This document shows, in pieces, positions 13,374-47,170 of a stretch of 64,000 bases of DNA; the stretch's first letter is position 1, and every line of letters begins with the position of its first letter. Source of the stretch: a virus (lineage: Duplodnaviria; Caudoviricetes). The stretch covers positions 41,963 through 105,962 of the IMG/VR virus record IMGVR_UViG_2711768162_000009. One strand, written 5' to 3'. A program made the translations under genes and the position numbers. The notes below the pieces were generated by a model. It had not been told where the DNA came from, made no database searches, and saw only the letters and a list, made by a program, of their open reading frames with translations.

Positions 13374-13411
13374 TCTTACGGGCGCAGGAGTAAGTCACGA
13401 CTTACTTATAG

Positions 13412-13442: not shown

Positions 13443-13461
13443 GACGATCAGGAGAAAGAAG

Positions 13462-13890: not shown

Positions 13891-13892
13891 GT

Positions 13893-25500: not shown

Positions 25501-27008
25501 CACGCAACAACTCCAGCATGGTCAAGGTCGGTTCGGCATTTGCAGGAGCCACCAGCTATACCACAACGGGCCGTATCGGAGATGACCTCACGTTCAAGGT
25601 TGTCGCCTACGACGGCGCAGGGCGCAGTGCCAACTTCGATACCGCTCCGACCTGGATGCATCTCGTCGAGGGCGCATCGGCACCGCCCAAGCAAGTGACC
25701 AACTTCAAGGTCGAGAAGGGCCTTGGCGGCATCGAGTTTACCTGGGACCGCTCGACCGAAATCGACGTCACCGGATTCGAGATTCGCGAGGGCGTCAGTT
25801 GGGGTGCGGGCGTCGCGATTGTCGAGGACTACTCGGGCAACCGCTTCTTTACCACCAAGAAGCAAGGCGGTCTCTACACCTACCACATCAAGGCCACGGA
25901 CGCCCTGGGCAACCAATCCGACGAGGCGGCAACCGCAGTGCTGATGCTGCCGGCTCCCTCTATCGTCGTCGGGTTCGCGTCGGTGCAGAACGGCGATCAG
26001 CTTGTCCTTCAGTGGCGCAAGAACCCTGAGATCGACGTGGTGGGCTATGAAGTTCGTCAGGGGTCGAGCTGGGCCAACTCGAAGCACGTCGCCTATGTGT
26101 CCGGCACGTCCCTGACGATTCCTGCCGGCGCCTCGGCTACCGAGTCGTATCTGATCAAGGCATATGACTCCGCAGGGGTGGAATCGGTCGCCGCGGCTCG
26201 CGTGGATCAGGCGGTATTCAGGAGCCAGACCTACAACGCCATCTTCTCGCTGGACGCTACCGATCTGGACTACCCCGGCCACTACATCAATCTGACTCAG
26301 GTAGGAGGCCGCCTGGAAGGTGCAGGCTCAGGCGAATTCTTCGAATACCTCCAGCCCATCGAGATGCCTAAGCGCTTCAATGCGACGCTGACCACTCAAG
26401 AGATCGTCGCAATCAAGTCCACGGCATCCCGCACCTGGAAAGACATGAACTTCCCCTGGTTCTCGTCCCAGGCCAAGACCCCCTGGTTTCCAACCGAGGA
26501 AAGTGACGATCTGGTGCTGGATAAGCAATTGACGCTTTACACCGGCCCGAGCGCGATCGACCAGTGTGCGTGGACCCTGGAGGACGCAAGCTCATCCCCG
26601 GCCTACGGAACTGGCTCTCTAACAGCCAGCAACGTGTCTCAGAGCGTCGGTCGCTTCGGATATGGGCAACGAGTCACTTCAGGCTCTTCCGTCCTCGAGG
26701 CGAGCGTTCAGGGCGAAATTGCATCGTGGTGGGTGAAGTATGAAGCTGGTGACGAGCTGGGCCGACTGGTGGGTGAGTCAGGAAGTGCCACCATCCGAGT
26801 TACTGACGGCGCCCTGCGTCTCGAGTCAGGCCAAACTGCTCTTCAACCGACAGAACTGACACTGAAGGCCGGCCATCACTACTTCGTCGTCGGCGCGGTC
26901 GTGGGAGGCCGAGTCAAGGCGTTCGTGGCCTGCCTTGAGACCGAAGTGACTGTTGAAGTGGTGCTGGAGCAGGACATTGGCGCCTTGAGCGCTGTAAAAC
27001 TTGCCTGA
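22557..27008 (+). CDS. Central tail tip / host-specificity protein (gpI+gpJ-like fusion)
   Basis: 1483 aa; VPLIYGE, VSEGPI, WSANPAW...RYGAG, FnIII-like repeats. Confidence 0.9.
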   Translation: MSTKLIPVEAIEEEKFVNLLVVYNALNMTDRQEAKLSYQRGKSLEQFLEGLPEPELWSICVNAEPYAPDEWRSVYPQPNDYITVIPIPYGGGDSKGVLRIVAMVAIAIVAPYAGGAMAAAMGGTATGALATGLTAAFTVVGGMLVNSILPPPTASSNNKTDLAESSTYGIDGAKNTQTEDTIVPLIYGEYRYFGNYVNVKSENRGNTQMIYAQSVVSEGPIESITDFQIEEQPASNYDDVSTVVRLGDSTQAPTGWFASTVEMQNKGITLSTNWTEHTTVGEIDGFRMDYVLPQGLSNIDDKDGDREHRSVTIEIQYRKEGESTWKSVFPSQYREFTGSRLPAGSTALRVEYSQNFRGTTPRKITGKLYVRVAGGSWQLKETISRTLPMSSGYGHLGGVSYVALSDTSTWDYKIEWSGASPTVTASARYQLSPTIRERTSQPLRRSFESGVLPEGRYLIRTRRTNNEAKSDYAYDKVVLSDVAEIISERVRYNYTAFFGVRVKLTDQLSNLPKMSAKIKGIKVPHYDVAGRLVKRAWSANPAWITADLLTNTRYGAGLPASRLDMPKFVEWAAFCDQKKYYFNGVLDTFSNVWDACQKVLRVGHARFTSIGNILSLAIYKPAQPMMMFGTGNILEGSLSLSWQSIEDRSNEFEIEFYDRENANKQSTVRVADEEALARGEVQRISTTRMIGIDNQKQALHEAHFQKALNQALVMSGKFDASIESIACGVGDVVLLQHDMPEWGESGRLRPGSTRSEVIVDRPLTIASEPEAHSLMVIHPAIKRAEGTVGSVNGSTIFISAGGTSHKFKRVKVAGKDIRVIDASPSGAYIETVLETTAGISSGDTIELWDVNVIESRRISAYDSDASTVTLAGPLSVDPMDFANYMIGITDAEAKPVTITGINGSGDYKRTISFVEYNETIFTPENVEETPIYTKPVTGVQHVRDLLVREELTIRGGGIETDILVAWTPPADGNYAGAHVYLSRNNSSMVKVGSAFAGATSYTTTGRIGDDLTFKVVAYDGAGRSANFDTAPTWMHLVEGASAPPKQVTNFKVEKGLGGIEFTWDRSTEIDVTGFEIREGVSWGAGVAIVEDYSGNRFFTTKKQGGLYTYHIKATDALGNQSDEAATAVLMLPAPSIVVGFASVQNGDQLVLQWRKNPEIDVVGYEVRQGSSWANSKHVAYVSGTSLTIPAGASATESYLIKAYDSAGVESVAAARVDQAVFRSQTYNAIFSLDATDLDYPGHYINLTQVGGRLEGAGSGEFFEYLQPIEMPKRFNATLTTQEIVAIKSTASRTWKDMNFPWFSSQAKTPWFPTEESDDLVLDKQLTLYTGPSAIDQCAWTLEDASSSPAYGTGSLTASNVSQSVGRFGYGQRVTSGSSVLEASVQGEIASWWVKYEAGDELGRLVGESGSATIRVTDGALRLESGQTALQPTELTLKAGHHYFVVGAVVGGRVKAFVACLETEVTVEVVLEQDIGALSAVKLA

Positions 27009-27041
27009 TATACTAAGTAACCACTTACTTAGGATGCGGAC

Positions 27042-27503
27042 ATGAACCTGACAGGAGTGATTTCGGACCTGAAGGTCATGACCGGAAGCGCTTTGCCAAG
27101 CTCGAACGCTCTTCAAAACATGTTCGAGTCAAGCGCACCGCCGGGGTATGACGGGTTTCGGCCCTACATCCCCGGCTACTACGACTTCCAGAAAGCCATT
27201 TTCCGCCACGCCGTCCGGGCCAAGACAGGAACGCCAATTCTGTCTGGCCTGGAATTCACAGCTGATATGCCGGATGTGGTGGACAGAGGCCAGGCAAGCG
27301 TAGAAGCCGGTCAGCTCAAGCAGGTCTATTTCGGCAAGCGATTCACCGTCCCGCCAGAGATCGGTCACACCGTCATCGCTGCAAACGAGTATTGCACCGT
27401 GCGTCTGAACGAGATCAATGAAACGGGATTCATCTTCCACATGGTCAATGCCGCCAACGAGAAGGTTGCCGGCACGATCTCTTGGAGCGCTACAGGTTAC
27501 TAG
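27042..27503 (+). CDS. Tail tip accessory protein
   Basis: D+PD..DRG...F...P...ISWSATGY pattern of fibre-anchor domains. Confidence 0.6.
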   Translation: MNLTGVISDLKVMTGSALPSSNALQNMFESSAPPGYDGFRPYIPGYYDFQKAIFRHAVRAKTGTPILSGLEFTADMPDVVDRGQASVEAGQLKQVYFGKRFTVPPEIGHTVIAANEYCTVRLNEINETGFIFHMVNAANEKVAGTISWSATGY

Positions 27504-27506
27504 ACC

Positions 27507-28379
27507 ATGCAAAGATATACGGACATTGATGAAAACACGGAGGTCGAGGACAGCCGCCAGCTTCTGCTGGACAACGACATGACCTCGATTACCAACAACT
27601 CGGGCGTCTCGTTTCCTGCCTACGCAGAGGCCGGGACGGCGTGCTATCGACTCGACCACGACCGGCTCTACATCAAGCGGGTCAACGGCGAGTGGCGAAT
27701 GATTGCAGACGCTGCGCAAACAGCTCTGACGCGGGAGGAAGCTGACCAGCGCTACTCCGACATTAACCACAACCACGATACGGCCTACGCTCCACGCCAG
27801 AGCCCGAATCGACCTGGCATCACGAAGCTGTATCGCAGTGACGCCGACTCCGGCTACAACGTCCAAACGACCTGGACCGGCACCTACTGGAAGCTCTACG
27901 GCTACAACGGCGACTCGGCACATGCCGGGTGCTTGGTCGACCGGGCTAACTCCGCCAGTTCCGCCGACAACGCCTCGAAGCTGAACGGCCTGTCTGCTGG
28001 CAACTACCTGCGCAGTAACACCAACTCGACCTTCACTGCCTCGCTGACGGTCAACGGCAACTTGACGGTCAAGAGCAGCCTGACGGTTTCTCGCGACATC
28101 ACCTCATCCTCGGATGCCCGCCTTAAGCGGGACATTGCCACCCTCGAGGACGCCACGCAGAAAGTGAAACAGCTCCGTGGCGTCAGCTACGTGATGAAAA
28201 GCTCAGGCGAGAAAGGCATTGGCTTCGTCGCCCAGGAGCTTCAAAAGGTAGTCCCCGACGTGGTGCGCATCGGTGAAGACAAAAAGCTCTCCGTTGCCTA
28301 CGGCAACATCACTGCCCTGCTGACCGAGGCGTTGAAAGACGTCATTTCGCGTATCGAGAAGCTGGAGGCTGCGGCATGA
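27507..28379 (+). CDS. Tail fibre with C-terminal intramolecular chaperone (peptidase S74)
   Basis: SSDARLKRDI...LRGVSY...IGFVAQELQKVVPDVV...LLTEALK. Confidence 0.9.
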   Translation: MQRYTDIDENTEVEDSRQLLLDNDMTSITNNSGVSFPAYAEAGTACYRLDHDRLYIKRVNGEWRMIADAAQTALTREEADQRYSDINHNHDTAYAPRQSPNRPGITKLYRSDADSGYNVQTTWTGTYWKLYGYNGDSAHAGCLVDRANSASSADNASKLNGLSAGNYLRSNTNSTFTASLTVNGNLTVKSSLTVSRDITSSSDARLKRDIATLEDATQKVKQLRGVSYVMKSSGEKGIGFVAQELQKVVPDVVRIGEDKKLSVAYGNITALLTEALKDVISRIEKLEAAA

Positions 28380-28627
28380 GCTACAAGATCGGCGGCACGA
28401 CCGTCATCGACAACAACGGCGAGATCGACTGGGGCCGCCTCAAAAACATCAAGGCGGTGATGGGGTCTTCGAGCAACTACACCAAGACCCATAACTGTGG
28501 TGACAAGCTGACAAGCATTAGCGGTCCCAAGCTGGAGCGAACCGGCAACAACCTTCGCATTCGCTACGACAGGTATTACGGCGACTGCAATTGCAACTGT
28601 AACTGCAACTGCCTGTGCCGAGACTGA
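28376..28627 (+). CDS. Cys/Asn-repeat small protein; candidate fibre-tip protein and radical SAM substrate
   Basis: 83 aa, ATGA overlap with fibre gene, ends DCNCNCNCNCLCRD. Confidence 0.8.
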   Translation: MSYKIGGTTVIDNNGEIDWGRLKNIKAVMGSSSNYTKTHNCGDKLTSISGPKLERTGNNLRIRYDRYYGDCNCNCNCNCLCRD

Positions 28628-28635
28628 GGTGACGC

Positions 28636-29559
28636 ATGAAGATCGGATTCTACGGTCCCTACCCGACCAATCACTACCTGCTTCACCTCCACATCGAAGG
28701 CTCTCGGCTCTACGCCGGCATCCTCTACCCTGCTGACTTCTTGACCGATGAGCCCGACACGCGGATGGCCTACGCCGACTACCTAACGTGGTTCAAGAAT
28801 GCGGAAGTGGACTACAGCTACGCCGGCTACCCCAACAACTTCACCAATGGCGTCTTCGTTCGTGGTGTCGCCAATCAGCCGGCAGAGCGGTGGTTCGAAA
28901 TCAAGGGCAAGATCGCCTTCGATATGCAGTATGCCGCTGGCGAGGATGAGTTCTGCGACTTCTCGATCATCGACCTGAACATCAAGAACGACGGCACCTT
29001 CTACGGCATCCAGAACCGCTTCTCGCGGACTCGTGGCGACAAGGTGCTGAAGTCGCATCGTGCACGGGCGGCCATCGACGTCAGCACCGTTCTGACGGTC
29101 GTCTTCCCCTTCTGTGCGCAGTCGTTCGAGGATGCGGAGTTGATCATCGTGCCCTACGGCGAGGGCTTTGAGCCCATTGGGGTTGAACCCGACTTCCGAG
29201 TCAGTGCCAAGCCGCCAGGCGAACGCCTGATACGCGATCTCTACTCGCCAAAGTTCGAAACTCCGGTGGTCCAGGTAAAGCCTGACGACATGGTTCAGAT
29301 CCCCTTCAGCACCACTTGGAATGGCGGCAGCGAGTATCCGCACGAGGAAGGCGAGCCGATTGACCGAGCCATCACTTACGAGGTCGAGCCGACCTCCGGC
29401 TACGTCGGTATCCGGCGAGTCACCACGGATGATCAGGGCAACGGCGTGATTCGGTTCAGAGCGCTCGACATGCTGCCCGGCGAGAAGGCCAAGGTGAAAT
29501 TGAATCTCGGCCATTTCTCCGCGCTGGGCGCTGTCGAGATCGAGGTGGTCGATGCTTAA
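28636..29559 (+). CDS. Hypothetical protein, paralogue 1 (MKIGFYGPYP family; beta-rich C-terminus)
   Basis: GAGG RBS; colinear with 32517..33437. Confidence 0.8.
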   Translation: MKIGFYGPYPTNHYLLHLHIEGSRLYAGILYPADFLTDEPDTRMAYADYLTWFKNAEVDYSYAGYPNNFTNGVFVRGVANQPAERWFEIKGKIAFDMQYAAGEDEFCDFSIIDLNIKNDGTFYGIQNRFSRTRGDKVLKSHRARAAIDVSTVLTVVFPFCAQSFEDAELIIVPYGEGFEPIGVEPDFRVSAKPPGERLIRDLYSPKFETPVVQVKPDDMVQIPFSTTWNGGSEYPHEEGEPIDRAITYEVEPTSGYVGIRRVTTDDQGNGVIRFRALDMLPGEKAKVKLNLGHFSALGAVEIEVVDA

Positions 29560-30550
29560 CGTCTTCCTTGGCTACGCCTGCAACTTCAACTGCGGCTATT
29601 GCCTTCAGGAGCCAGAACACGAGCGGGGGCCTAATCGGGCTCCCCGCCTGGATGCATTCTTCGAGAAGGTCATTCCAGAGATCAAGCGCCAGGGCATTCG
29701 CGAGATCGCCTACTGGGGCGGCGAGCCGCTGGTCTACTGGAACGCCATCATGGAAATCCACGAGCGACTGCTCGACGAAGGCATCAGGTTTGACCTGGTG
29801 AAGTTCGTCACCAACGGGAGTCTGCTCAAGGAGCATCACGTCAAAGTGCTCAATGCCTGGGGCGCCTACGTGGTCGTGTCCATGCACGAAGGCTTCGGTG
29901 AACCCAACTGGGACATGGTGGCTCAGCTCCATAAATCGAGCCTGTCGTTCCTGTTTCGCAAGGATCGCCTGAGCCCAATGGAGTGGCTTGAGCGCGTCGA
30001 AGAACTCGAGGCCCACTACCAGCGACCATTCTTCCCCTACATGCACTGGATTCGCTCAACGGACGGTGCGGCGGAGAAATGGTGGCTCGGCCACGAAGAC
30101 CTTGATGAACACGTCGCAGAGCTATGGGAGCTGGCCCGGATGCGCATTGAGGGGCATCGCCTGGCACATGGTCTATGGGAGGCTCACCTTCAAGACTGGC
30201 GCAGCAAGATGCGACCGGGCCGCGAAGCCGTCCCGATGTGCTTCGGCAAGCATCAGATCGACATTGACCTAGACGGCAATCTCTACGGCTGCCACCACAC
30301 CGTCAACGACTCGATGAAGGTCGGCACCCTGGCAGAAGGCGCCAAGGATATTGTGGTGATGAGCCGCATCCGTCGCTTCGTGGACACCAAAGAGTGTATG
30401 GCCTGCCCGATCAAGACCTGGTGCCGGGGCAACTGCCACCTCTCCAACACCCACGACGTTGACTGCCGGCTGTCCAAAGAGAAGCACCGCATTCTCCAAT
30501 GGATCGACGCCAACGAGCGCGGCATCGACGCTATTGCCATCGACGTTTGA
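29552..30550 (+). CDS. Radical SAM / SPASM domain protein 1
   Basis: CNFNCGYC, WGGEPL, VTNGSLL; SPASM C...DGNLYGC...CMAC...CRGNC...C. Confidence 0.92.
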   Translation: MLNVFLGYACNFNCGYCLQEPEHERGPNRAPRLDAFFEKVIPEIKRQGIREIAYWGGEPLVYWNAIMEIHERLLDEGIRFDLVKFVTNGSLLKEHHVKVLNAWGAYVVVSMHEGFGEPNWDMVAQLHKSSLSFLFRKDRLSPMEWLERVEELEAHYQRPFFPYMHWIRSTDGAAEKWWLGHEDLDEHVAELWELARMRIEGHRLAHGLWEAHLQDWRSKMRPGREAVPMCFGKHQIDIDLDGNLYGCHHTVNDSMKVGTLAEGAKDIVVMSRIRRFVDTKECMACPIKTWCRGNCHLSNTHDVDCRLSKEKHRILQWIDANERGIDAIAIDV

Positions 30551-30579
30551 CCAACTTAATCAGTAAGGACTGACTGACC

Positions 30580-31869
30580 ATGTTTACGATTACCCTGCGC
30601 CGTCAGAATGGCGAGGAATTCCAGCTCCAATATGATCACCGTGCCAATCGCCTGCTGACGATGGAGGGCCTAGACGCCCTGCCGTTCTATCACGAGAAGC
30701 GGGAGTGGTCAGTCGCCCGGTCCTTTAGTCCCGACAACCCCGTTGGTAAGACCGGCAAGGTCAAGAATCTCAAGATTCAGCTCGGCCTGAAGTGCAACTA
30801 CTCATGCGCCTACTGCAACCAGGCGGTTCATGTTGGCAGCGAGGTTCACACCAATCTCGATGACGTGCATGAGTTCATGGCTGGGCTCGATAGCTGGATG
30901 GAGACAGCGCCCCAGCGTATCGAGCTGTGGGGTGGCGAGCCGCTGGTCTACTGGAAGAAGCTCAAGGTGCTGATTCCGGCGTTGCACGAGCGCTTCCCGC
31001 AGGCGCAGTTCGTGATGATCACCAACGGCTCTCTACTGGACGACGAGAAGTTCGCCTTCATCGAGCGATACGATATGGCGATCGCCATGTCCCATGACGG
31101 CCCCGGCCAGCATTTGCGAGGCCCTGACCCGTTCGAACAGCCCGAGACCGTCCGGATCGTTCGGCGCTTCATCGAAGAGCGCCCCCACCGCTTCTCGATA
31201 AACAGCGTAATCACCAAAGCCAACACCGACATCAATGCCATCGTCGACTGGTTCCGTGAGCGCGTTCACCCCGACGCTCCCGTTAACTTCGAAGGGGTCG
31301 TCAATCACTACGACGAAGCCGGTGTAGGGTTCACGGAGCGCTTCACTGAGCGCGATTACGAGAAACTGGTGTCATCACTCAAGGAGAATCTGAAAGACGC
31401 TGAGAAGCGCTCCCAGGGGCTAGAAGCGCGTGTTTACGACTTCATCGAATCCATCATGGAAGCTCGCCCACACACGTCGCTGGGTCAGAAGTGCGGAATG
31501 GACAGCGAAGACCGGCTGGCGGTCGATCTGAAGGGCAACGTCATGACCTGCCAGAACACGGGAGCAACCTCGGAGCACGGCATTGGCTCCGTCTTCGACA
31601 TGGATAACGTGAAGCTGACCACCTCCTGGCACTGGATGGAGCGGCCCGACTGTGAGGGCTGTCCCTACCTTCAGCTTTGTGCCGGCGGCTGCATGTTCCT
31701 CGAGGACAAGAACTGGGTCGATACCTGCAACAACGAGTATCACTACGCCAAGGGTATCTTTGAGGGTGCCTTGCGAATGCTGACCGGCGCTGACGTCGTT
31801 GCCTTCGAGGGCCATCACACTCGGCCCAAGGCCCCTTCCGACAACCTGATTCCGGTGATGGCGGTATGA
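30580..31869 (+). CDS. Radical SAM / SPASM domain protein 2
   Basis: CNYSCAYC, WGGEPL, ITNGSLL, SHDG; SPASM KCG...GNVMTC...CEGC...CAGGC...C. Confidence 0.92.
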   Translation: MFTITLRRQNGEEFQLQYDHRANRLLTMEGLDALPFYHEKREWSVARSFSPDNPVGKTGKVKNLKIQLGLKCNYSCAYCNQAVHVGSEVHTNLDDVHEFMAGLDSWMETAPQRIELWGGEPLVYWKKLKVLIPALHERFPQAQFVMITNGSLLDDEKFAFIERYDMAIAMSHDGPGQHLRGPDPFEQPETVRIVRRFIEERPHRFSINSVITKANTDINAIVDWFRERVHPDAPVNFEGVVNHYDEAGVGFTERFTERDYEKLVSSLKENLKDAEKRSQGLEARVYDFIESIMEARPHTSLGQKCGMDSEDRLAVDLKGNVMTCQNTGATSEHGIGSVFDMDNVKLTTSWHWMERPDCEGCPYLQLCAGGCMFLEDKNWVDTCNNEYHYAKGIFEGALRMLTGADVVAFEGHHTRPKAPSDNLIPVMAV

Positions 31870-32459
31870 GCGAATTTACAGGCTTCAATGGGCTTATCGG
31901 CATCTACGACATAGACGATTTCACCGCGACGGAATGGGAGACGGTGGTTGGCCTATGCAACAAGATGGCCCAAAGCGAGGGAGTGGCGCAGCAGCTCACC
32001 GCCGGCAACACTCGAGCCGACGTCATTGGCGACACGCCGGAGCTGCAACGCATCTCAAGCGCTCTCGAAGAGGCCATCGGTCATTACCTGGTGGCGAACT
32101 TTCCCGTCGTGCTGCATCCCGACACCGAACTCGATCTCGCTCGGGTCGGCTCCTGGTTCAGCGTCTACAGGAAGGGTGAAAGTCAGGCGACGCACACCCA
32201 TGACGCCGACCTGTCTGCGCTGATCTACTTCGACACGGTAGAGGAAGACCACGGCGGCCTGACAATCTTCACTAACCCGGTAAACCCGCACCTGCCGGTA
32301 GGCTCTGGGTTGATGCAAAAAGGACTGCGGGTCCATCTCCCTGTCGAGGCGGTGAAGGGCCGAATCGTAGTGTTCCCGAGCTATCTCGAGCACGGCTGCT
32401 CAACCTATGAAGGACCAGGGCTGAGACGAGTCCTGGCTGCCGACTTCACGGCTCAATAG
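31866..32459 (+). CDS. Putative Fe(II)/2OG oxygenase (TIGR02466-like)
   Basis: SW...HTH...LSALIY...GG...F.NP...VVFPSYLEH...RRVLA double-stranded beta-helix pattern. Confidence 0.8.
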   Translation: MSEFTGFNGLIGIYDIDDFTATEWETVVGLCNKMAQSEGVAQQLTAGNTRADVIGDTPELQRISSALEEAIGHYLVANFPVVLHPDTELDLARVGSWFSVYRKGESQATHTHDADLSALIYFDTVEEDHGGLTIFTNPVNPHLPVGSGLMQKGLRVHLPVEAVKGRIVVFPSYLEHGCSTYEGPGLRRVLAADFTAQ

Positions 32460-32516
32460 GTAAGTCACTGGTTACTTATCTGATATACTGGCCCAACCGC
32501 AACAGGAGGCTCTGAC

Positions 32517-33437
32517 ATGAAAGTTGGCTTTTACGGCCCCTACCCCATACAGGCGCAACAAGTGCATCTCTACATCGAGGAATCCCGCATCTACGTGGGC
32601 ATCTTGGCGCCGTTCACCTCGAAGCACTACAAGCCCGAGCACTTCATGACCTACCCGGAATATCTGGAGTGGTTCAAGACTGTCGAGGCTGAGCACGAAT
32701 ACGCCGGATACCCGAACAACAACTACAACCACTACATCGTGACAGGCGTTCCCGGCCACGACCCGGAAGCGCGCTTTCTCATCCTTGGAAAGCTGGGCTT
32801 CGATCTGCGCTACGCCGCTGGCGAGGATGAAGTGACCGACTTCACCATCCTCGACGTCAATATCTACAACGACCGAACGCTGGCCGGTATCCAGAACCGC
32901 TTTGCGAACACCCGCAATGAGAAGGCCATCAAGTCCCATCGCGTCCGTGCGCTGGATAACGTCAGCACCGTTGCGACCATCGTTTTCCCCTACAAGTCAG
33001 ACACCTTCGAGGATGCCGAGCTGGTAGTGGTGCCCTACAACGAGACCGGGCGACCTCTGGGAATGGAGCCGGACGTGTGGTTCGACGCCAAGCCGCCAGG
33101 CGAACGGCTGATCGCGGACATGTATTCGCCCAAGTTCGTTCAGCCGGTGGTCGAGGCCAAAGCCGGTGAGCTGGTCAGGATTCCCTTCAGCACCACCTGG
33201 AATGGCGGTGACGAATACGATCACGCCGAAGGTGAGCCTTTGTCTCGCGCTGTGACCTACAAGGTGGAGGCCACTGCGGGCTATGTGCCAAAGCGTCGGA
33301 TCGTCACTGACGAGAAAGGTAGCGGCGAGATCCTGTTCCGGGCCACCGACCTAGAGCCAGGCGACGAAGCCAAGGTGAAGCTGAACATCGGCCACTTCAC
33401 CGGCATCAGCCACGTCACCGTGAAGATCACTGAGTAA
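32517..33437 (+). CDS. Hypothetical protein, paralogue 2 (MKVGFYGPYP family)
   Basis: AGGAGG RBS; shares YAAGEDE, GIQNRF, AKPPGERLI, IPFSTTWNGG and AKVKLN with 28636..29559. Confidence 0.8.
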   Translation: MKVGFYGPYPIQAQQVHLYIEESRIYVGILAPFTSKHYKPEHFMTYPEYLEWFKTVEAEHEYAGYPNNNYNHYIVTGVPGHDPEARFLILGKLGFDLRYAAGEDEVTDFTILDVNIYNDRTLAGIQNRFANTRNEKAIKSHRVRALDNVSTVATIVFPYKSDTFEDAELVVVPYNETGRPLGMEPDVWFDAKPPGERLIADMYSPKFVQPVVEAKAGELVRIPFSTTWNGGDEYDHAEGEPLSRAVTYKVEATAGYVPKRRIVTDEKGSGEILFRATDLEPGDEAKVKLNIGHFTGISHVTVKITE

Positions 33438-33480
33438 CCCCAGGGCACCCTAGCGGTGCCCTCTTCTCTTCGAGACTCCC

Positions 33481-34215
33481 ATGAACATCAAGTCCCACAC
33501 CCAGATTCAGACCATCTTCCCCTCCTTCGTGATGCACAAGCGCTGGGAGATGCCGCCGGGGTTTAACGAGCGACTGCACGAACTCGCGTGCGAAGACGCC
33601 ATCAGGAACCGGATCACGAAAGCAGACAACCCCACCAATATCGGTGACACCTCGAATCACCTCGGGCACCTTCGTCACAACTTCCTGGTCGAGTGCCAGG
33701 AGCCTGAAGTGAAGACTCTGACCCAGATGGCTGACCTGGCCGTGAGGGAGTATCTGGCCTCGGTTTACGGCTATCAGCACGAAGGCGAGGTTCGCATGAT
33801 GAGCGACACCTTTTGGCAGCGCCGAAGTCATGGCGAAAACGTCGGCATCAACAGTCACACCCACATCAAGGCTGATCTGGTGGTGACCTACTACCCTCGC
33901 GTAGACGTGGAGCCGGGGGAAACTAGCTCGCTACGCAAGGGAGCATGTCGCTTCTACGACCCGGCCAACGTCGGCAAGCGCTTCTGGCCCTGCAACAACG
34001 ACGCCTTCTTCGTCGGAGGCTGGTATCAGTTGGAGCCGCAGGAGGGCTCAATGACAGTGTTCGAGGGCTACGTCCCTCACGACAGCACGTTCTTCTCCGG
34101 TGAAGAGCGAATGTGCATCCCGATCCTCGTGGACGTCGATACACCCAAGAAGCACTGCAAAGCTGCGGTGAGCGACATTCTCGGCTACAAGCCCTGGGAG
34201 AAAGGCCATGAGTGA
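33481..34215 (+). CDS. Putative Fe(II)/2OG oxygenase (TIGR02466-like)
   Basis: HTH...LVVTYY...RFYDP...PQEGSMTVFEGYVPH...ERMCI. Confidence 0.75.
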   Translation: MNIKSHTQIQTIFPSFVMHKRWEMPPGFNERLHELACEDAIRNRITKADNPTNIGDTSNHLGHLRHNFLVECQEPEVKTLTQMADLAVREYLASVYGYQHEGEVRMMSDTFWQRRSHGENVGINSHTHIKADLVVTYYPRVDVEPGETSSLRKGACRFYDPANVGKRFWPCNNDAFFVGGWYQLEPQEGSMTVFEGYVPHDSTFFSGEERMCIPILVDVDTPKKHCKAAVSDILGYKPWEKGHE

Positions 34216-34825
34216 GCTGCCAGGTTTCAGTGATCTAGTGATGGCCGTTCAGATTCGCGACTTCACAGAAGCCGAATGGAGTGCGTTAGAGCACATCGCA
34301 GAGAGCCACACCAGGCAGGTCTCGCGACGCAACGACCCAAAGAGCCCTGGTGCGGAGCCGCTTACCACCGCGGATTACGACGACCTTATCGGTAGTATTC
34401 CTGCACTAGAGCGCATCGGAAAGGCACTTGATGAGGTGGCGGAGCTGTATCTCTCCACTCAGCACCCTGGGGCGCCGGTCCTTGGCTATGGGCTGAAGCG
34501 AACCGGCTCTTGGATGAGCGTCTACAAGACCGGCCAGGCACGCGAAACCCATACTCACGACTCGGACGTCAGCGTGGTGTTGTTTGTCGATGACGTGCCC
34601 GAAGAGGACGGCGGAGTGCTGGGCTTTCTCAACCCCACGAATCGCCATGTGATCGGCGGCACAGGGCTACTTCAGACGACGTTCCGAAAGCAATTCACCC
34701 TTACGCCGCAGAGGTGCGTCGCCGTTGCCTTCCCAGGCTACCTCGAGCACTTCGCCACCGAATACCAGGGACTAGACACCCGCCGGATCATCGCTGCTGA
34801 TTTTGCTGCATTTGATAGTAAGTAA
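34208..34825 (+). CDS. Putative Fe(II)/2OG oxygenase, paralogue of 31866..32459
   Basis: GSWMSVY...THTHDSD...FPGYLEH...RRIIAADF. Confidence 0.8.
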   Translation: MSELPGFSDLVMAVQIRDFTEAEWSALEHIAESHTRQVSRRNDPKSPGAEPLTTADYDDLIGSIPALERIGKALDEVAELYLSTQHPGAPVLGYGLKRTGSWMSVYKTGQARETHTHDSDVSVVLFVDDVPEEDGGVLGFLNPTNRHVIGGTGLLQTTFRKQFTLTPQRCVAVAFPGYLEHFATEYQGLDTRRIIAADFAAFDSK

Positions 34826-34883
34826 TCGCTGACTTACTATGGTATATTGCCCCTTGGACTTGACTTTCTACAGGGGCAATTAG

Positions 34884-35231
34884 GTGAACGAGCACATCTC
34901 CGTTCCGCAGCCCGATCACTCACCCGCCGCCGGCGCTCTCGAGCAAACGTCGGTCAATTGGGCAGACAAAAGCCTCTGGGTAGTGGTTGGGCTGATCCTC
35001 CTGGGCCACATGGCCCGCAATCTCGTCTCCGACGAGCCGTTCAACCTCAAGAAGTTCATTGGCGAGATGCTGCTGGCCGGCATCGGCGCTGTCGTCATCT
35101 ACCTCTTCGGCATTCTTCAGGGCTTGCCGGAGATTCAAATCATCCTGATCGGAAGTCTGACCAGTCTTGGCGGCATTCGCGCGCTCGAATGGGCCGCAAA
35201 GATTTACCGCCTTTCCAAGAAACTGCACTAA
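34884..35231 (+). CDS. Holin (3 TM, probable)
   Basis: Three hydrophobic segments, basic C-terminus, directly upstream of endolysin. Confidence 0.75.
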   Translation: MNEHISVPQPDHSPAAGALEQTSVNWADKSLWVVVGLILLGHMARNLVSDEPFNLKKFIGEMLLAGIGAVVIYLFGILQGLPEIQIILIGSLTSLGGIRALEWAAKIYRLSKKLH

Positions 35232-42558: not shown

Positions 42559-42641
42559 GCGCCCCCCAGGGTGATACCGCCTGGCATCACTCTGGGGTAT
42601 TATGTAAGTCATCGCTTACTGATCTTCTAAGAGGAAGGACA

Positions 42642-43607
42642 ATGGCTGATCTAGCCTCAACCAGAGTGTTCGGCACGCTGGTTGTTAAGCACAGAGCATG
42701 GGTTGATGGAGGCGAGGTTTGGCACTCCAAGAATGCCCCATACCTTCAAACCAACGGTTGGGGTGGTGTTCGACATACCACCAGCGACGGCTATATCGAC
42801 CTTGGCCCGGCCAATGCCGATCACGCTCACATCTACACAGACAGGCCGGATTTCTACTTCAACAGAGACTTGATGGTCAGCGGGAACAAAGTCTGGCACG
42901 CCGGAAACACAGGCGAATACACGATCAACGGCCAAGACTTCAGGGGTCGTGGCAAACGCTGCATCGTGGCGAGCACATCTGCCATGTTTCTTAACTACGC
43001 AGGAGACTTCACCAACGTCACGATTCAAAGCGATGCAGTGATCAGCGGCATCCTGACAGCGAATGATCACCTTCGCTCGGGTGCGATGAATTTCAGCACC
43101 TACAAAGAGTGGGATACAGGCGAGTTCAACGCTCTCGGCGGAGGCGCAGCTATTGTCAACGACAGCACTGGTCACAAGGGGCTCATGATCCTCGGCAACC
43201 GCTCAGCCGGTGGCAACCGCATCGTTAAGGTATGGGATGAGCTTCAGTGCATGGGTGACGTTAAGGCATACGCCTCGGACGCCAGGCTCAAGACCAACGT
43301 GCAGACCATCAGCGGCGCCCTCGACAAGCTGAGCCAAATCCGGGGCGTGACCTATGACTGGATCGAGGACTGCGAAGACCTCGGTTTCTGCCCGGCCAAC
43401 CCACATGAGCATGGCGTTATTGCTCAAGAGATAGAGTCGGTAATCCCTGATGCCGTGTCCTCTGCCCCGTTCAACGAGGACTATCTGACTGTCCGCTACG
43501 ACCGGATCGTGCCACTGCTCATTGAGGCACTGAAGGAAGAGGCGGCATTGAGAGAGCAGCTTCAGCGGCGGGTCCAGACGCTCGAGAGCGGTCAGGAGGT
43601 GGCCTGA
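42642..43607 (+). CDS. Tail fibre with C-terminal intramolecular chaperone (peptidase S74)
   Basis: YASDARLKTNV...IRGVTYDW...GVIAQEIESVIPDAV...LLIEALKE. Confidence 0.9.
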   Translation: MADLASTRVFGTLVVKHRAWVDGGEVWHSKNAPYLQTNGWGGVRHTTSDGYIDLGPANADHAHIYTDRPDFYFNRDLMVSGNKVWHAGNTGEYTINGQDFRGRGKRCIVASTSAMFLNYAGDFTNVTIQSDAVISGILTANDHLRSGAMNFSTYKEWDTGEFNALGGGAAIVNDSTGHKGLMILGNRSAGGNRIVKVWDELQCMGDVKAYASDARLKTNVQTISGALDKLSQIRGVTYDWIEDCEDLGFCPANPHEHGVIAQEIESVIPDAVSSAPFNEDYLTVRYDRIVPLLIEALKEEAALREQLQRRVQTLESGQEVA

Positions 43608-44149
43608 TGGCAACGAGGCTCACCACCTGGACATACACCACCTCATGGTCGGCAACCACGAGCTGGACGACTAGTTACTCTGCCACCACCAGTCGCTCGA
43701 CAACCACGAGCTGGACAACAAGCTGGACGACCAATTGGACGACAAACTGGTCGCAGAACACGAACAGGTCTACGTCCACACGCATCGGCGGCCCACTGCC
43801 GGCCACAGGTGAGATAAGTCTGAAGGCTGCGGGTGACGCTCTCGGCATGACAGGGGTGATCTCCCTTGGCGCAATGCGTGGAAAGGGAACGCCTACACTG
43901 CCGGCGTCCGGCGAGATCAGGATGGATCAGCTACACGGTCTCGAGAACTACCGGAATACGACCACCACCTGGTCGACTAGCTACTCGAGATCAACCTCGC
44001 GATCAACGTCCAAGACCACTTCCAAATCGACGACGACAAGGTGGTCGACCTCCAAGTCGAAGTCCACGTCGAGGTCTACAACGAAAAGCAAAAGCACCTC
44101 CACCAGCGGGTGGACTCACTACAACTGCAACTGTCTCTGCCGAGACTGA
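43607..44149 (+). CDS. Thr/Ser-rich protein with fibre-tip-like central domain and NCNCLCRD tail
   Basis: TGATG overlap with fibre gene; TTSW repeats; LPATGEISL/LPASGEIRM; ends HYNCNCLCRD. Confidence 0.8.
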   Translation: MATRLTTWTYTTSWSATTSWTTSYSATTSRSTTTSWTTSWTTNWTTNWSQNTNRSTSTRIGGPLPATGEISLKAAGDALGMTGVISLGAMRGKGTPTLPASGEIRMDQLHGLENYRNTTTTWSTSYSRSTSRSTSKTTSKSTTTRWSTSKSKSTSRSTTKSKSTSTSGWTHYNCNCLCRD

Positions 44150-44184
44150 GTAAGGGCGGCCTGGCCGCCCTGTAGGAGCACAAC

Positions 44185-44358
44185 ATGAACGACCAGAAGA
44201 CTGCTGAGCGCCTTGGGCAATTGAGCGAAGTGCTGCTCGAGCACCTGACCAGCTTCGATCAGAAGATGAACGAGGCAATTGAGGCGCTGGACGAGCGCAT
44301 CGAAGAGCTAGTCGAGCAACGCATCAACGAACGGCTCAAGGAGCTTGGGTGTGAGTGA
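44185..44358 (+). CDS. Small coiled-coil protein (57 aa; not in ORF track)
   Basis: AGGAG RBS; MNDQKTAERLGQLSEVLLEHLTSFDQKMNEAIEALDERIEEL...; overlaps next start. Confidence 0.7.
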   Translation: MNDQKTAERLGQLSEVLLEHLTSFDQKMNEAIEALDERIEELVEQRINERLKELGCE

Positions 44359-45178
44359 CTTCGATCAAGACCGCATTGACGACGCCTACACCATCCTGTC
44401 CAAGATCGGGAACATCTCACGGTCCCCGGCGTTGAGCAGCCTGGAGGGCATGGCGCCCCATGTCTACGACGCCTTCGATGGCGAGGTGCTGTTCGACATT
44501 TACTACGACGGCGGCCGGGACTTCAAAAGCATCACTTTCACTGAAATCTTCAGTCACGGCTTACTGATCAGCCCTTGTAACGATGCCATGCGCTACGACA
44601 TGGCTCTGCACGCCCTGAACGACGAAGACCCATCAGTGCCGGCAGAACGAATCCTCGGATGGGGGCGGATCGACAAATACCAGCTCAGAAAGCGCTTGAG
44701 TCGTAAGCCAGTGCCGGCAGCGGTCTTTCTTCCTGGCACCAACCTACTCAGCGACAAAGTGAACTGGGCTCAGGTGCAAGCCGCGGTCGATGCAGGCGCC
44801 TTGGTCAAGATGCACCCCATCACCAGCGCAGGCTGGGAGAGACGCTTGAAGCAGGAGTTTGGATCTCGGCTGGTGAGTAAGGGGGAAAGCGGATTTGACC
44901 TCCTGGCCGCCGCTGAGCGCGTATACACCACCTCCAACAGTGAGATGGGCCTGCTCGGCATTCTTATGGACAAGCCCGTCGATCTGGTCGAAGGGGGCGT
45001 CACCAGCAAGCGCCCGATCTACCGTCAGCTCTATGAAGCTGTGCTGCCTCAAGACAATCCAAAGGCCGCGCTGGAGAAACTGCTTGGTAGCCGTCACGCA
45101 GGATTCTACTGGCCCTGGCACGACTCCAGCCGCCCTCTCGAAATCGTCAATGCAATGAGAACCTTCGCCCATGCTTAG
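44351..45178 (+). CDS. GT-B-fold protein resembling capsule polysaccharide modification/glycosyltransferase families
   Basis: LVKMHP, DLLAAAERVYTTSNSEMGLLGILMDKPV nucleotide-sugar-binding pattern. Confidence 0.6.
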   Translation: MSDFDQDRIDDAYTILSKIGNISRSPALSSLEGMAPHVYDAFDGEVLFDIYYDGGRDFKSITFTEIFSHGLLISPCNDAMRYDMALHALNDEDPSVPAERILGWGRIDKYQLRKRLSRKPVPAAVFLPGTNLLSDKVNWAQVQAAVDAGALVKMHPITSAGWERRLKQEFGSRLVSKGESGFDLLAAAERVYTTSNSEMGLLGILMDKPVDLVEGGVTSKRPIYRQLYEAVLPQDNPKAALEKLLGSRHAGFYWPWHDSSRPLEIVNAMRTFAHA

Positions 45179-46067
45179 CGCCTACTGCTGCCCCACCAAC
45201 GACAACCTTCCGCAACTGATCGTCGCGGTATCCAGCTTCATGCGCCAAAACCCTGGCGTCCCGGTGGTGGCCTACTTCAACAAAGGAACCGACGTCGAAG
45301 CCCTCGAGGCTATGGGTGTTGAGGCTGTCTGCGTCATCGGCTCACATCTCATGATCTCGGGTCTCGATGACCTGATGCTACGCCGCCCCGACATCACCCG
45401 AGCGGTCCACATTGGGGCGACCACCCTCACGCAAGACAGCTTGTCGGATATGGCAGGAGTTCCAATGGACGGTCTGCCGATTGGCGCGGCAAGCGTCTAC
45501 ATGTTCCCTCACGACGAGGTGGGGCCTGATTGCTACCGCCAAGCCGACCCGGAGCTGTTCAGCTCTCGGCAGCAGGTCAATGAGCGGTATTTCGACACCG
45601 ATTTCCTGCTGTTCAACCTCGAACAGTGTCGCCGACAGCAGGATCGCAGCATCGCCTTGAGGTATTGCATGAGCCGGGCGAGGACTGAACAGGAATTTTT
45701 GAACCAGGTGTTTGGCGAGTCCGACTTCCTGAACATGCCGGGCAACTTGAATGTCGCACCAGAGCACACCATTCACCTCGATCTGAACCCCTTCAAGTTG
45801 GCAAGGCATCGGCTCGAGCTGGAAAACGCGAGAGTGATTCGCTTCCCTGGTGATGTGGTGCCCTGGAGGCCCATCAAGAATGTCGATAGGGCGTCCATTC
45901 AGTTGCCCATGAAGCAATATTTGGCTGCCGCTGAGTGTGTGGTTTCGCTCCTGCCGCCGGAATTTGTGAAGACCATCGAGGCCAACTCCAAGTTGCTCAA
46001 CGACTACATCGGGCCGGTGGCAGACGTTCTTGCTGAAGCGCACTCTATCGCCATGAGAAACGCCTAA
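45171..46067 (+). CDS. Glycosyltransferase family 8-like protein (divergent)
   Basis: DNL...VAVSS, YFDTDFLLFNL (cf. YFNSGVLLxNL), EQEFLN (cf. DQDxLN), IRFPGDVVPW (cf. IHFxGxxKPW); canonical DxD not evident. Confidence 0.6.
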   Translation: MLSAYCCPTNDNLPQLIVAVSSFMRQNPGVPVVAYFNKGTDVEALEAMGVEAVCVIGSHLMISGLDDLMLRRPDITRAVHIGATTLTQDSLSDMAGVPMDGLPIGAASVYMFPHDEVGPDCYRQADPELFSSRQQVNERYFDTDFLLFNLEQCRRQQDRSIALRYCMSRARTEQEFLNQVFGESDFLNMPGNLNVAPEHTIHLDLNPFKLARHRLELENARVIRFPGDVVPWRPIKNVDRASIQLPMKQYLAAAECVVSLLPPEFVKTIEANSKLLNDYIGPVADVLAEAHSIAMRNA

Positions 46068-46134
46068 TCCTTATATGGTTCTTTATCTCTTCGCCTGATA
46101 TAGTAAGTCAGCACTTACTTATGAGGGTAAGCGA

Positions 46135-46305
46135 ATGGCACAGATCGCCCTGGCTTTACTGGTTGGCACACTGAAGACCTTTCTCACTCAGAAGTTCATC
46201 ACCAAGGTGGTGATCCTTCTGGCGGAGTTTCTGGCCTCCAAGACCACCAGCAAGTTCGACGACAAATTGGTCAGCGCCATGAAAGAGGCCGCTGGCGAAA
46301 AGTAA
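46135..46305 (+). CDS. Small amphipathic membrane peptide (56 aa; not in ORF track)
   Basis: GAGGG RBS; MAQIALALLVGTLKTFLTQKFITKVVILLAEFLASKTTSKFDDKLVSAMKEAAGEK. Confidence 0.7.
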   Translation: MAQIALALLVGTLKTFLTQKFITKVVILLAEFLASKTTSKFDDKLVSAMKEAAGEK

Positions 46306-46357
46306 TCTCCAGGCGGCCGAGTGCCGCCTGACTTCTTCGTAAGACAGGAACCTGCCC

Positions 46358-47170
46358 ATGCCTCGTAATACACGGAAGCAGCAGAAGCGAAAAGAGCGCC
46401 GCGCCGAGAAGCGCAATCGCTACCAGGAGCAACAGTCGATGCATCCTCGCGTGCAGGCTGGCGACGCATCCATGAACGAACTGCTGCGGTTTGTGGCCGA
46501 TGCCAAGACCAAGGCCATCCGAGAGCCCATCGAAGCTCAGTCTGAGGCTCAGGGTCACTACCTGATCTCTATCGAGCAGAACGATGTGACCTTCGGGACT
46601 GGCCCTGCCGGCACCGGCAAGACCTTCATTTCCACGGCGATGGCCGTCGAGGCATTCCTGAACGGTGAAGTTGGCAAGATCGTCGTCACCCGCCCTGTCA
46701 TCGAGGCGGATGGTGACCAGATGGGCTTCCTGCCCGGCGAGATCGCCGACAAGTTTGCGCCCTACTTCTACCCGGTGCGGGAAGTGCTGGAAGAGCGACT
46801 TGGCGCTGCCTTCACCAAGAAGCTCATCGAGGAAGGCAAGATCGAGATTGCTCCGTTTGCCTACATGCGCGGTCGGACCTTCAAGAACGCCTTCGTGATT
46901 CTCGATGAGGCACAGAACACCACGCCCAAGCAGATGAAGCTGTTCCTGACTCGGCTTGGCGAAAACGTGAGGGTCGTCATCAACGGCGACAGCTCACAAC
47001 AAGACATTCGTGCCGCACGCAATGGCCTGGATGACGCGCATCAACGGTTCAGCCGCACCCCTGGCTTTGGGGCTGTCGCATTCGAGACTGGTGACGTCCG
47101 TCGTTCACCGCTCGCGAAGCGCATTGTCGAGAACTACGAGCGCGATCCCGACTATCCAGCGTGTGCATGA
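46358..47170 (+). CDS. phoH: PhoH-family ATPase
   Basis: GPAGTGKT, VTRP, GFLPG, AYMRGRTF, LDEAQN, FLTRLG, GDSSQQD. Confidence 0.95.
   Translation: MPRNTRKQQKRKERRAEKRNRYQEQQSMHPRVQAGDASMNELLRFVADAKTKAIREPIEAQSEAQGHYLISIEQNDVTFGTGPAGTGKTFISTAMAVEAFLNGEVGKIVVTRPVIEADGDQMGFLPGEIADKFAPYFYPVREVLEERLGAAFTKKLIEEGKIEIAPFAYMRGRTFKNAFVILDEAQNTTPKQMKLFLTRLGENVRVVINGDSSQQDIRAARNGLDDAHQRFSRTPGFGAVAFETGDVRRSPLAKRIVENYERDPDYPACA

Follow-up and report, generated by a model that had tools for sequence, protein, structure and literature searches.

Among peptides that are made by ribosomes and modified after translation (RiPPs), NxxcA carries a beta-carbon thioether between Cys23 and Asn20 that is formed by a radical S-adenosylmethionine (radical-SAM) enzyme, and aspartate is described as a thioether acceptor as well, namely in freyrasin with its six Cys-Asp bridges and in QhpC (PMC8326336). 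CrpC is a SPASM radical-SAM enzyme that puts ranthionine cross-links into a large Cys-rich protein; it has two candidate substrates with a recognition segment in common (Dieter et al., 2026; PMC13692751). Here we describe a stretch of 64,000 nucleotides (nt) from a virus of the Caudoviricetes, positions 41,963 to 105,962 of the IMG/VR record IMGVR_UViG_2711768162_000009 (this whole stretch is called the window in the following), in which two small proteins coupled to tail-fibre genes, P0001 and P0002, end in the same eight residues, NCNCLCRD, a form of an alternating-cysteine ladder, and in which a radical-SAM/SPASM enzyme, rSAM2, is the presumed modifier of both tails. Tail-fibre tips decide to which bacteria a phage can attach, and to our knowledge the accepted picture of fibre assembly comprises chaperones and self-cleavage only, with no enzymatic cross-linking or radical chemistry. 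The genes on which the argument turns are these:

27507-28379, plus strand: first tail-fibre gene, 290 amino acids (aa), with an S74 chaperone domain (Pfam PF13884, E = 4.6e-16, 59.3 bits against a cut-off of 22)
28376-28627, plus strand: P0002, the first ladder protein, with 83 aa and coupling to the S74 fibre gene before it; the final eight codons, 28601-28624, encode the octapeptide
30580-31869, plus strand: rSAM2, radical-SAM/SPASM enzyme, 429 aa, phrog_1802 (Pfam Radical_SAM; SPASM TIGR04085; PHROG, E = 1.7e-58)
42642-43607, plus strand: second tail-fibre gene, whose product of 321 aa has an S74 intramolecular-chaperone domain in its C-terminal part at residues 212-272 (PF13884, E = 1.2e-17, 64.4 bits against a cut-off of 22)
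43607-44149, plus strand: P0001, a 180-aa Thr/Ser/Trp-rich fibre-coupled protein with a C-terminal ladder (from translation, homologues and strain comparison)
44123-44146, plus strand: the NCNCLCRD codons of P0001 (from sequence and translation)

The identity of the two tails is real and non-random. Codons 28601-28627 at the end of P0002 read AAC TGC AAC TGC CTG TGC CGA GAC TGA and codons 44123-44149 at the end of P0001 read AAC TGC AAC TGT CTC TGC CGA GAC TGA; both open reading frames (ORFs) thus end in the same octapeptide, as the sequence-only reading of this DNA had stated, and the two stretches are 2 of 27 bases apart, TGC against TGT (Cys) and CTG against CTC (Leu), both synonymous. The translation of P0002 ends in ...YYGDCNCNCNCNCLCRD and that of P0001 in ...GWTHYNCNCLCRD, each directly before the stop codon. 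The 27-mer at up to three mismatches has 2 sites in the window, against an expectation of 0.00 from 100 shuffles, and a six-frame scan of the window for NCNC or CLCRD gave no further site. In the whole record of 105,962 bp these two are the only ladder-ended ORFs, and two genes carry a CxxxCxxC motif. The remaining parts of the two proteins had been called dissimilar, and this was borne out, since BLASTP pairs the final CRD alone (E = 46), so that P0001 and P0002 are otherwise unrelated at the sequence level. The coupling to the fibres is likewise as it had been described: each ladder ORF overlaps the stop of an S74 fibre gene (start at 28376 against a fibre end at 28379, and 43607 against 43607, where the stop codon of the fibre gene and the ATG of P0001 have one base in common), Peptidase_S74 lies above its gathering score in the gene upstream of each, and both ORFs are preceded by a good Shine-Dalgarno sequence, which for P0001 is AGGAGG, 8 nt 5' of the ATG.

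In these features the window resembles the CrpC/CrpA system of Methanococcus voltae, where a SPASM enzyme with three [4Fe-4S] clusters has a large, adjacently encoded Cys-rich substrate and not a short peptide, and where two otherwise different substrates, CrpA and CrpB, have a short recognition segment in common, to be compared with P0001 and P0002 (Dieter et al., 2026; PMC13692751). It departs from Crp in that the common segment there consists of the first 47 N-terminal residues, which are bound by a RiPP recognition element (RRE), whereas here it consists of the last eight; moreover, C-X-X-Q/D repeats are found there and an alternating ladder here, and Crp is archaeal and cellular and does not belong to a virion (PMC13692751). 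The streptococcal radical-SAM RiPP pair NxxcB/NxxcA is similar in that the acceptor Asn lies three residues before the Cys, and this N-x-x-C spacing is present in every N-C-N-C stretch of the ladder (PMC8326336). Unlike the ladder proteins, the NxxcB substrate is a short, leader-dependent bacterial peptide with one bridge, and no NxxcB-specific model is among the NCBIfam matches listed for rSAM2. Judged by title and abstract, the papers listed in our literature searches gave no link of a radical-SAM enzyme to a phage fibre; the supplements of PMC13692751 may hold relevant substrate families.

P0001 is a real gene, because it has homologues with core and ladder, is covered by a gap-free contig from a related strain and differs from that strain mostly by synonymous changes. 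Its layout comprises Thr/Ser/Trp arrays at residues ~11-47 and ~115-165, a conserved core at ~62-113 and the ladder at the C-terminus. Four homologues were found among 678 candidates (E 1e-19 to 9e-7), which have the core, the flanking Thr/Ser/aromatic arrays and a Cys ladder in common, the core pattern of this 180-aa family being G.LP..G...ISL..MRGKG.P.LP..G.I...L.G. The related-strain contig (97% identical) spans 42894-46400 with 92 differences and 0 gaps. Within the P0001 gene 16 of the 18 differences listed are synonymous and 2 are non-synonymous, and the single listed difference in the tail, 44140 C>T, is synonymous as well; these counts apply to the differences listed, and in run X1 positions beyond 44140 are not vouched for. 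Over 44045-44248, the span of a 204-nt contig (run X3), there are 0 differences. Purifying selection acts on the P0001 gene as a whole.

An HMMER profile search with the P0001 family in 1.84 billion representatives (E <= 0.001) returned 18 proteins, 16 of which are distant and match the core only (profile positions ~62-166), at their N-termini. A ladder at the C-terminus was seen in none of these 16 (P0020-P0035), whose C-terminal parts are quite different, and the ladder is therefore an add-on to a core that is a widespread module. The double module LP-x-SG-x-IS-x-S ... SG-x-IS-F-S-x-F-R-G stands at the N-terminus of many proteins of 140-334 aa that are unrelated in other respects (P0020-P0035) and is internal in P0001; P0022 and P0028 have Thr/Ser/Trp arrays added but no ladder, and P0021, which lacks a ladder as well, has a Hint-like domain. 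The AlphaFold2 (AF2) model of P0001, built from 5 sequences, was too poor for use (predicted local distance difference test, pLDDT, 57.6; predicted template modelling score, pTM, 0.25) and gave hints of long strands in the Thr/Ser arrays; the Atlas held no usable match for P0001. BLASTP of P0001 against the small ladder protein of locus L189 was not significant (E = 1.0), and their SG-x-IS-x-S likeness is an impression only. Against the phage collection, megablast and blastn of 27000-35000 and 42600-44400 gave no match, and tblastn gave nothing for P0001 and only E >= 3 for P0002; IMG/VR held no relatives of the P0001 alignment, of the 277-aa protein encoded downstream of P0001 or of the two-sequence alignment of the latter.

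The sequence-only reading regarded NCNCLCRD itself as a portable tag. Portability holds for the Cys ladder, which occurs on unrelated fibre and tip proteins, but not for the octapeptide, which is lineage-specific: within the 180-aa family it is present in P0001 only, and the four homologues have other ladder tails. The element that recurs and is conserved is the alternating ladder (C-X)n, in which X is mostly Asn, Asp or Ala. The 83-aa family of P0002 keeps ...CNCNCNCNCLCRD, its last 13 residues being unchanged in P0018 (93% identical) and in P0019 (69% identical). The 180-aa family elsewhere ends in ...NCACRTCNACGNT / ...WNCACRTCNACGNT or in ...SACACCNACGNT, the latter two before a stop codon, and further tails of this family read ...NCACNCDCTC or ...NCNCDCTC and pass at once into a Hint domain. 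The octapeptide was not found in frame elsewhere in IMG/VR or in the metagenomes of the Joint Genome Institute (JGI). Two stretches that a search for the exact tag gave in IMG/VR were rejected as chance, since one reads NCNCFCSD in an 18-codon frame and the other lies in no listed ORF of >= 20 aa; two stretches from the JGI metagenomes were rejected likewise, being contigs of 23-32% G+C with no homologue of any window protein. For the statistics of tails we used 55 distinct tails from loci that were fetched by the enzyme and thus independently of the ladder. At the 221 positions between ladder cysteines N accounts for 57%, D for 17% and A for 14%, the last ladder Cys is the chain end in 27 of the 55 tails, and CLC or a terminal RD occurs in none of these 55 other tails.

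Tails that resemble each other on different bodies within one genome were also seen in L014, L062 and L108 (...CSDDS... tails), in L147 (...CGK) and in L151/L163 (...NCNCACNC); these are mostly tandem neighbours and may be paralogues, and L132 and L145 are less uniform. Small ORFs of 67-82 aa in L021, L032 and L119 end in ...HTH(I/L)F(F/Y)DDYST(A/N)CNCNCNC... and thus combine an H-x-H motif with a ladder; those of L021 and L119 lie 5-7 kb from weaker relatives of rSAM2 (E 1e-22 to 1e-23), and L032 has only a match of E = 3e-4 about 1.2 kb away. In several relatives the last ladder Cys doubles as residue 1 of a Hint (intein-like) self-cleaving domain (C|F-x-x-x-T...), as in the genes at L124 9689-10909 (P0008), L130 3709-5160 (gp028 of Achromobacter phage JWF), L135 6706-8127, L159 7016-8440 and L189 8291-9094. 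Judged from these junctions, cleavage by Hint would leave the ladder as the mature C-terminus; the end of P0008, ...SGDNT, resembles the ...CGNT end of relatives without Hint. A reading as spliceotide (X-Y-G), prompted by YYG ahead of the P0002 ladder, was dropped, because P0001 has HYN at this place and no splicease-type NCBIfam match was obtained.

Ladder and enzyme keep close company in other phages. Searching from the ladder to the enzyme, we used a CNCNCNC DNA pattern in IMG/VR, which matched at least 119 stretches; the counts refer to the matches listed. As a true ladder end we took a ladder at most 35 residues from the end of a frame with 60 codons or more, and as the enzyme an rSAM2 homologue with E < 1e-15 in the fetched locus. 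Among the matches listed, 46 frames are ladder-ended, usually belonging to fibre-like proteins of 100 to 620 residues, and an rSAM2 homologue lies in the locus of 36 of these 46, as compared with 1 of the 73 chance matches of the pattern. For most of the ten ladder-ended frames without an enzyme the downstream flank is shorter than 2.6 kb, and two of the frames appear to be junk. In the opposite direction, 66 loci with at least 3 kb upstream were fetched by homology to rSAM2, and in 53 of them a ladder-ended ORF lies on the same strand at most 6 kb upstream of the enzyme (median gap 1,430 bp); to these come three loci with the ladder fused to Hint (L135, L159, L189) and one with the ladder 6.06 kb upstream (L205). 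The expectation that C-terminal Cys ladders occur together with SPASM radical-SAM genes was therefore confirmed, tightly and in both directions (36/46 against 1/73; 53-57/66). Co-occurrence with S74 fibres, which had been expected too, proved to be one way of carrying the ladder and not a requirement, an S74 domain being present in 22 of 80 enzyme loci. Three carrier architectures can be distinguished: a fibre that ends directly in a ladder (e.g. P0013), a fibre in which a Hint domain comes after the ladder (JWF gp028, L135, L159), and an S74-chaperone fibre behind which one to three small ladder proteins are encoded separately, the type to which the window belongs. Small ladder ORFs behind an S74 fibre are found in L132, L143, L146, L147, L151, L156, L158 and L163, and in L189 a ladder-plus-Hint protein stands behind the S74 domain. 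The rSAM2 family is common, with at least 355 relatives confirmed among at least 593 IMG/VR pattern matches, and extends to the cultured phages JWF, 2-1 and RSP15, where the module is annotated generically only; because the enzyme family occurs in cultured phages, the idea can be tested at the bench.

The window has further genes around rSAM2:

28636-29559, plus strand: 307-aa protein without assigned family, behind the ladder gene and ahead of the enzymes (no match in Pfam, NCBIfam or PHROG), with a paralogue at 32517-33437
29552-30550, plus strand: rSAM1, a second radical-SAM/SPASM gene, 332 aa, without N-terminal extension, a rare accessory (Pfam, NCBIfam)
31866-32459, 33481-34215 and 34208-34825, plus strand: three 2-oxoglutarate (2OG)-Fe(II) oxygenase genes (Pfam PF13759)
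32517-33437, plus strand: paralogue of the 307-aa protein, within the oxygenase stretch 31866-34825

These genes occur in few of the loci with rSAM2: true orthologues of rSAM1 (E < 1e-20) in 3 of 80, homologues of the middle oxygenase in 13 and relatives of the 307-aa protein (E < 1e-5) in 10. Thus, ladder and rSAM2 form the core pair.

rSAM2 has the cysteines of a SPASM enzyme, since its CxxxCxxC motif (C72, C76, C79) as well as C305, C324, C358, C361, C367, C371 and C383 are invariant in 54 sequences, and it passes the SPASM model TIGR04085 with 36.2 against a cut-off of 27. The CrpC family model TIGR04463 gave 37.6 against 525 for both rSAM1 and rSAM2. The AF2 model of rSAM2 is of good quality (pLDDT 91.8, pTM 0.90), and its best solved structural match is the thioether synthase CteB (5wgg_A; Z 24.1, root-mean-square deviation (rmsd) 4.0, 357 aligned residues, model residues 1-404 against chain 4-450), followed by ChlB (Z 22.2) and an anaerobic sulfatase maturase (Z 21.0). 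Residues 1-55 are modelled as a conserved three-stranded unit (pLDDT 94-98 except for residues 31-40 at 81), which may represent a cut-down recognition element. The likeness to the CteB/SCIFF and PapB/freyrasin maturases consists in CteB being the best structure, PapB the best NCBIfam match, and the Cys set of SPASM being complete. It differs from them in that the identity is 17-19%, that the scores remain at 70.3 against 340 for PapB (E = 1.6e-19) and 56.7 against 425 for the SCIFF maturase, and that the N-terminal domain of rSAM2 has only ~55 residues in three strands and is probably not a full RRE; in addition, the substrates here are fibre proteins without a common leader, P0001 and P0002 sharing no N-terminal segment. 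QhpD/QhpC of the quinohaemoprotein amine dehydrogenase is comparable insofar as a Cys to Asp/Glu cross-link is made in a subunit that stays in a larger assembly (PMC8326336 and PMC13692751). It is unlike the window in that rSAM2 scores 58.7 against 453 with the QhpD model (TIGR03906), QhpC is recognised via a leader, and the system is cellular and periplasmic.

A close phage counterpart is gp028-gp030 of Achromobacter phage JWF, with an enzyme of the same family (40% identity, E = 8e-77), a ladder in gp028, ...QNCNCDCNCNCSC, followed by Hint (Pfam 47.5 against a cut-off of 32.1), and a protein without assigned function between fibre and enzyme. Unlike in the window, the ladder of JWF is fused to the fibre and capped by the self-cutting Hint domain, and there is one substrate per enzyme, whereas the fibres of the window end in S74 chaperones and the ladders sit on separate small proteins, and two unrelated carriers with one tail stand against one cluster. 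What this locus adds is the second, remote carrier, one tail common to two bodies without relation, the absence of a paralogue, and a direction in which the tail would have been replaced.

The absence of the paralogue comes out in a comparison with a prophage of Halomonas sulfidaeris ATCC BAA-803 (L124, AP019514), which in species-representative genomes is the only match to the 180-aa family; for this comparison these parts of the window matter:

44185-46067, plus strand: module-2 companions of P0001, namely a 57-aa ORF, a 277-aa protein (phrog_26179) and a 298-aa protein (tblastn to L124, PHROG)
46068-46134: 67-bp junction at which the Halomonas relative holds a second rSAM2 paralogue that is absent in the window (gene order against L124)
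From 46135: 56-aa ORF, followed by PhoH from 46358, after the end of the 298-aa gene at 46067 (window gene order)

The order in L124 is the same as in the window: a large fibre protein, a 153-aa protein, an S74 fibre (60% identical), an 83-aa-type ladder protein, a fragment of the 307-aa protein, rSAM2 (52% identical), lysis genes, a second S74 fibre, a 180-aa-type protein with ladder plus Hint, the 57-aa ORF, the 277-aa protein (49% identical), the 298-aa protein, a second rSAM2 paralogue (42% identical), the 56-aa ORF and PhoH. By tblastn the module-2 companions show 52% (57-aa ORF), 49% (277-aa protein) and 27-43% (298-aa protein) identity in the same order. The 83-aa-type ladder protein of L124 is frameshifted and has the tail ...NTNCNCNCNCDCGNS before its stop; this ladder gene and both radical-SAM paralogues are each split into two or three frames (2787-3100, 4665-6006, 12958-14121), and because many genes are affected, these breaks look like sequencing error and not like decay. 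In L124 the 298-aa homologue extends to 12801, the rSAM2 paralogue occupies 12821-14115 and the 56-aa ORF starts at 14222, followed by PhoH; in the window the corresponding 46068-46134 holds no second paralogue, and the related-strain contig crosses the junction with 0 gaps. P0002 and the P0001 homologue of L124 each have an rSAM2-type gene on the same strand, a few kb downstream, whereas the only rSAM2-type gene for P0001 itself lies 11.7 kb upstream (30580-31869) and none follows the 298-aa gene. The closest relative accordingly has one enzyme paralogue per ladder module, and the window has two ladder proteins and one enzyme cluster. A tree of the C-terminal part (145 columns, 69 rows) gave (L124 copy 2, (window rSAM2, L124 copy 1)) with supports of 100/97 and 100/87, which means that the second paralogue is older than the split and missing in the window. 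The simplest history, as read from gene order and tree, would be two paralogues in the common ancestor and a loss of the module-2 copy in the lineage of the window.

On balance we favour a reading in which a portable tail on both proteins is served by one enzyme cluster and the P0001 ladder is a substrate of rSAM2, and in which we infer a contact between enzyme and ladder, an action in trans, thioether chemistry and a structural role of the product. Within this reading, and held with the same restrained preference, the ladder would be the site that rSAM2 modifies, and probably the site that it recognises, too. P0001 would be a tail-fibre-associated tip or accessory protein, and each S74 fibre would be translated along with its own small ladder protein. 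rSAM2, with two auxiliary Fe-S clusters, would act on the C-terminal ladder and most likely join Cys sulfur to side-chain carbons of Asn or Asp in ranthionine-type thioether bridges, within or between chains, and the bridged product would harden or lock the fibre tip. Thioether stapling is the likeliest chemistry because the N-x-x-C spacing is given at every ladder step and X is mostly Asn or Asp. The ancestor would have had one enzyme paralogue per ladder module, and the phage of the window would have lost the module-2 copy; P0001 would now carry the tail of the 83-aa family, and the single cluster ~11.7 kb upstream would serve both proteins in trans. That it was P0001 which took over the tail of the other substrate is suggested since the 83-aa family keeps ...LCRD and the 180-aa family elsewhere does not. 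Going by these comparisons, the takeover appears to have occurred in the same lineage that lost its own enzyme, which is as expected if recognition by the enzyme takes place at the extreme C-terminus and a single cluster serves both. Processing in trans by the remaining cluster is the best reading because the second paralogue is absent and P0001 has the tail of the 83-aa family.

Several points weigh against this reading. The only pointer to the relation between enzyme and substrate is gene neighbourhood, and for nine of the 66 rSAM2 loci no ladder was found near the enzyme. Ten long viral records scanned whole for C.C.C.C have real ladder ORFs adjoining rSAM2 only and no remote ladder gene, so that a remote ladder gene is unusual and an action in trans has no second example. 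The P0001 ladder, with only 3 alternating cysteines, is at the short end of a range in which 53 of the 55 tails have at least 4, and P0001 may for this reason be a poor or decaying substrate. The best NCBIfam matches of rSAM2 (PapB, CcpM, Nif11-type, QhpD and SCIFF maturases) are all far below the equivalog cut-offs, the sulfatase maturase, which oxidises Cys to formylglycine, is with Z 21.0 nearly as good a structural match as CteB, and the thioether chemistry proposed for rSAM2 is drawn by analogy. P0001 could be served by rSAM1 and not by rSAM2, and the tail identity could stem from a short recombination patch without functional cause. The tree comprises 145 columns only, the L124 genes in it are frameshifted, and the branch of copy 2 is longer (0.45 against 0.19). 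As to the nine loci without a ladder, four are the AT-rich viral contigs L142, L148, L149 and L153, and in L148, L149 and L153 the match starts near residue 53 and leaves the N-terminal three-strand unit unmatched.

The ladder might instead have a structural role at the axis of a trimeric tip, as a metal-binding or disulfide element that two proteins have in common because they dock in the same kind of fibre end, and the enzyme might act otherwise or on P0002 only; this we regard as improbable. Alternating residues in an extended strand would place all cysteines on one face, and H-x-H stands just ahead of the ladder in some small proteins, e.g. ...HTHIFYDDYSTACNCNCNC in L021, L032 and L119. 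The His-iron ladder in the tip of the T4 long fibre is a precedent for a metal-bound tip. Metal binding was also weighed by the CrpA authors for their own Cys-rich protein (PMC13692751). Such an element would leave unexplained, however, both the company of enzyme and ladder documented above (36/46 against 1/73 among the matches listed; 53-57/66) and the one enzyme copy per ladder module in the Halomonas relative; moreover, the X positions are mostly Asn and Asp, that is, thioether acceptor types, and not His or other ligands.

It could also be that both ladders are modified by the enzyme but not to thioethers: the cysteines might be converted to formylglycine, residues might be epimerised or undergo another radical reaction, and the three 2OG oxygenases could hydroxylate Asn or Asp. 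Chains of anaerobic sulfatase-maturating enzymes come next after CteB and ChlB in the structural comparison (Z 20.9-21.0, rmsd 3.6-4.0, 320-326 aligned residues), a sulfatase maturase and EpeE are among the sequence and fold matches, the JWF homologue is labelled anaerobic sulfatase-maturating enzyme in one record, and three PF13759 oxygenases are in the cluster. We nevertheless consider this unlikely, given that the anaerobic sulfatase maturase model TIGR03942 reaches 39.8 against a cut-off of 349.45, that what we take to be the sulfatase target motif is absent from the tail, and that the top NCBIfam matches and the top structure are thioether formers. Finally, a short patch of recombination or gene conversion could have produced the identical tail incidentally, with P0001 unprocessed and its ladder a relic left after the loss of its own enzyme. 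This is very unlikely; the likeness is limited to 27 nt, the P0001 ladder is short with its 3 cysteines and the 10 other whole records have no remote ladder genes, but the peptide is kept across two synonymous differences between the copies and a third synonymous variant in the related strain, purifying selection acts on the P0001 gene (of the differences listed, 16 are synonymous and 2 non-synonymous), and the acquired tail is the one that stays unchanged in the 83-aa family at 69% overall identity.

Returning to the portable tail that is served by one cluster, two unrelated carriers with eight common residues and one cluster, set beside a sister prophage with one enzyme per carrier, point to the extreme C-terminus as the recognition element. 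The window is the cleanest natural experiment for ladder recognition and suggests a short tag that could be moved to other proteins. More tentatively, the last ladder residues might constitute a leader-independent, transplantable C-terminal tag that is read directly by a phage radical-SAM enzyme, so that fibre tips would be stapled covalently, possibly between three chains; tag and enzyme would co-evolve, and an orphaned tip protein would have been rescued by taking the tail of the other substrate. If true, a leader-independent tag would mean that radical-SAM enzymes of the RiPP type recognise substrates in a way that is new for them, and the process would add to the maturation of phage receptor-binding organelles an enzymatic step that was not known before.

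Concerning the neighbouring genes, the 307-aa protein and its partner are visible as paralogues in the DNA, where repeats D1, D5 and D6 lead to 32646-33044 with 70-73% identity over stretches of 75-165 nt that are all offset by 3,881 bp, and relatives of this protein stand between ladder and enzyme in other phages as well, e.g. ORF047 of RSP15. The 277-aa and 298-aa proteins gave a weak Glyco_transf_8 match (E = 0.02, below cut-off) and a Capsule_synth lead in the Atlas (13% of one cluster); O-glycosylation of the Thr/Ser arrays of P0001 by these proteins is possible but unsupported. Of 301 genomes in the family to which G001 belongs, 1 has the 277-aa protein, and so does 1 of the 400 scored genomes of its class; in both cases this is G001 itself. 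Copies of a TAAGT...ACTTA palindrome with a TGATATA-like box are located at 27003-27034, 34808-34839 and 46093-46124 and also at 44539-44570. They lie at the borders of the fibre and ladder modules, one just ahead of PhoH, and probably mark transcription units.

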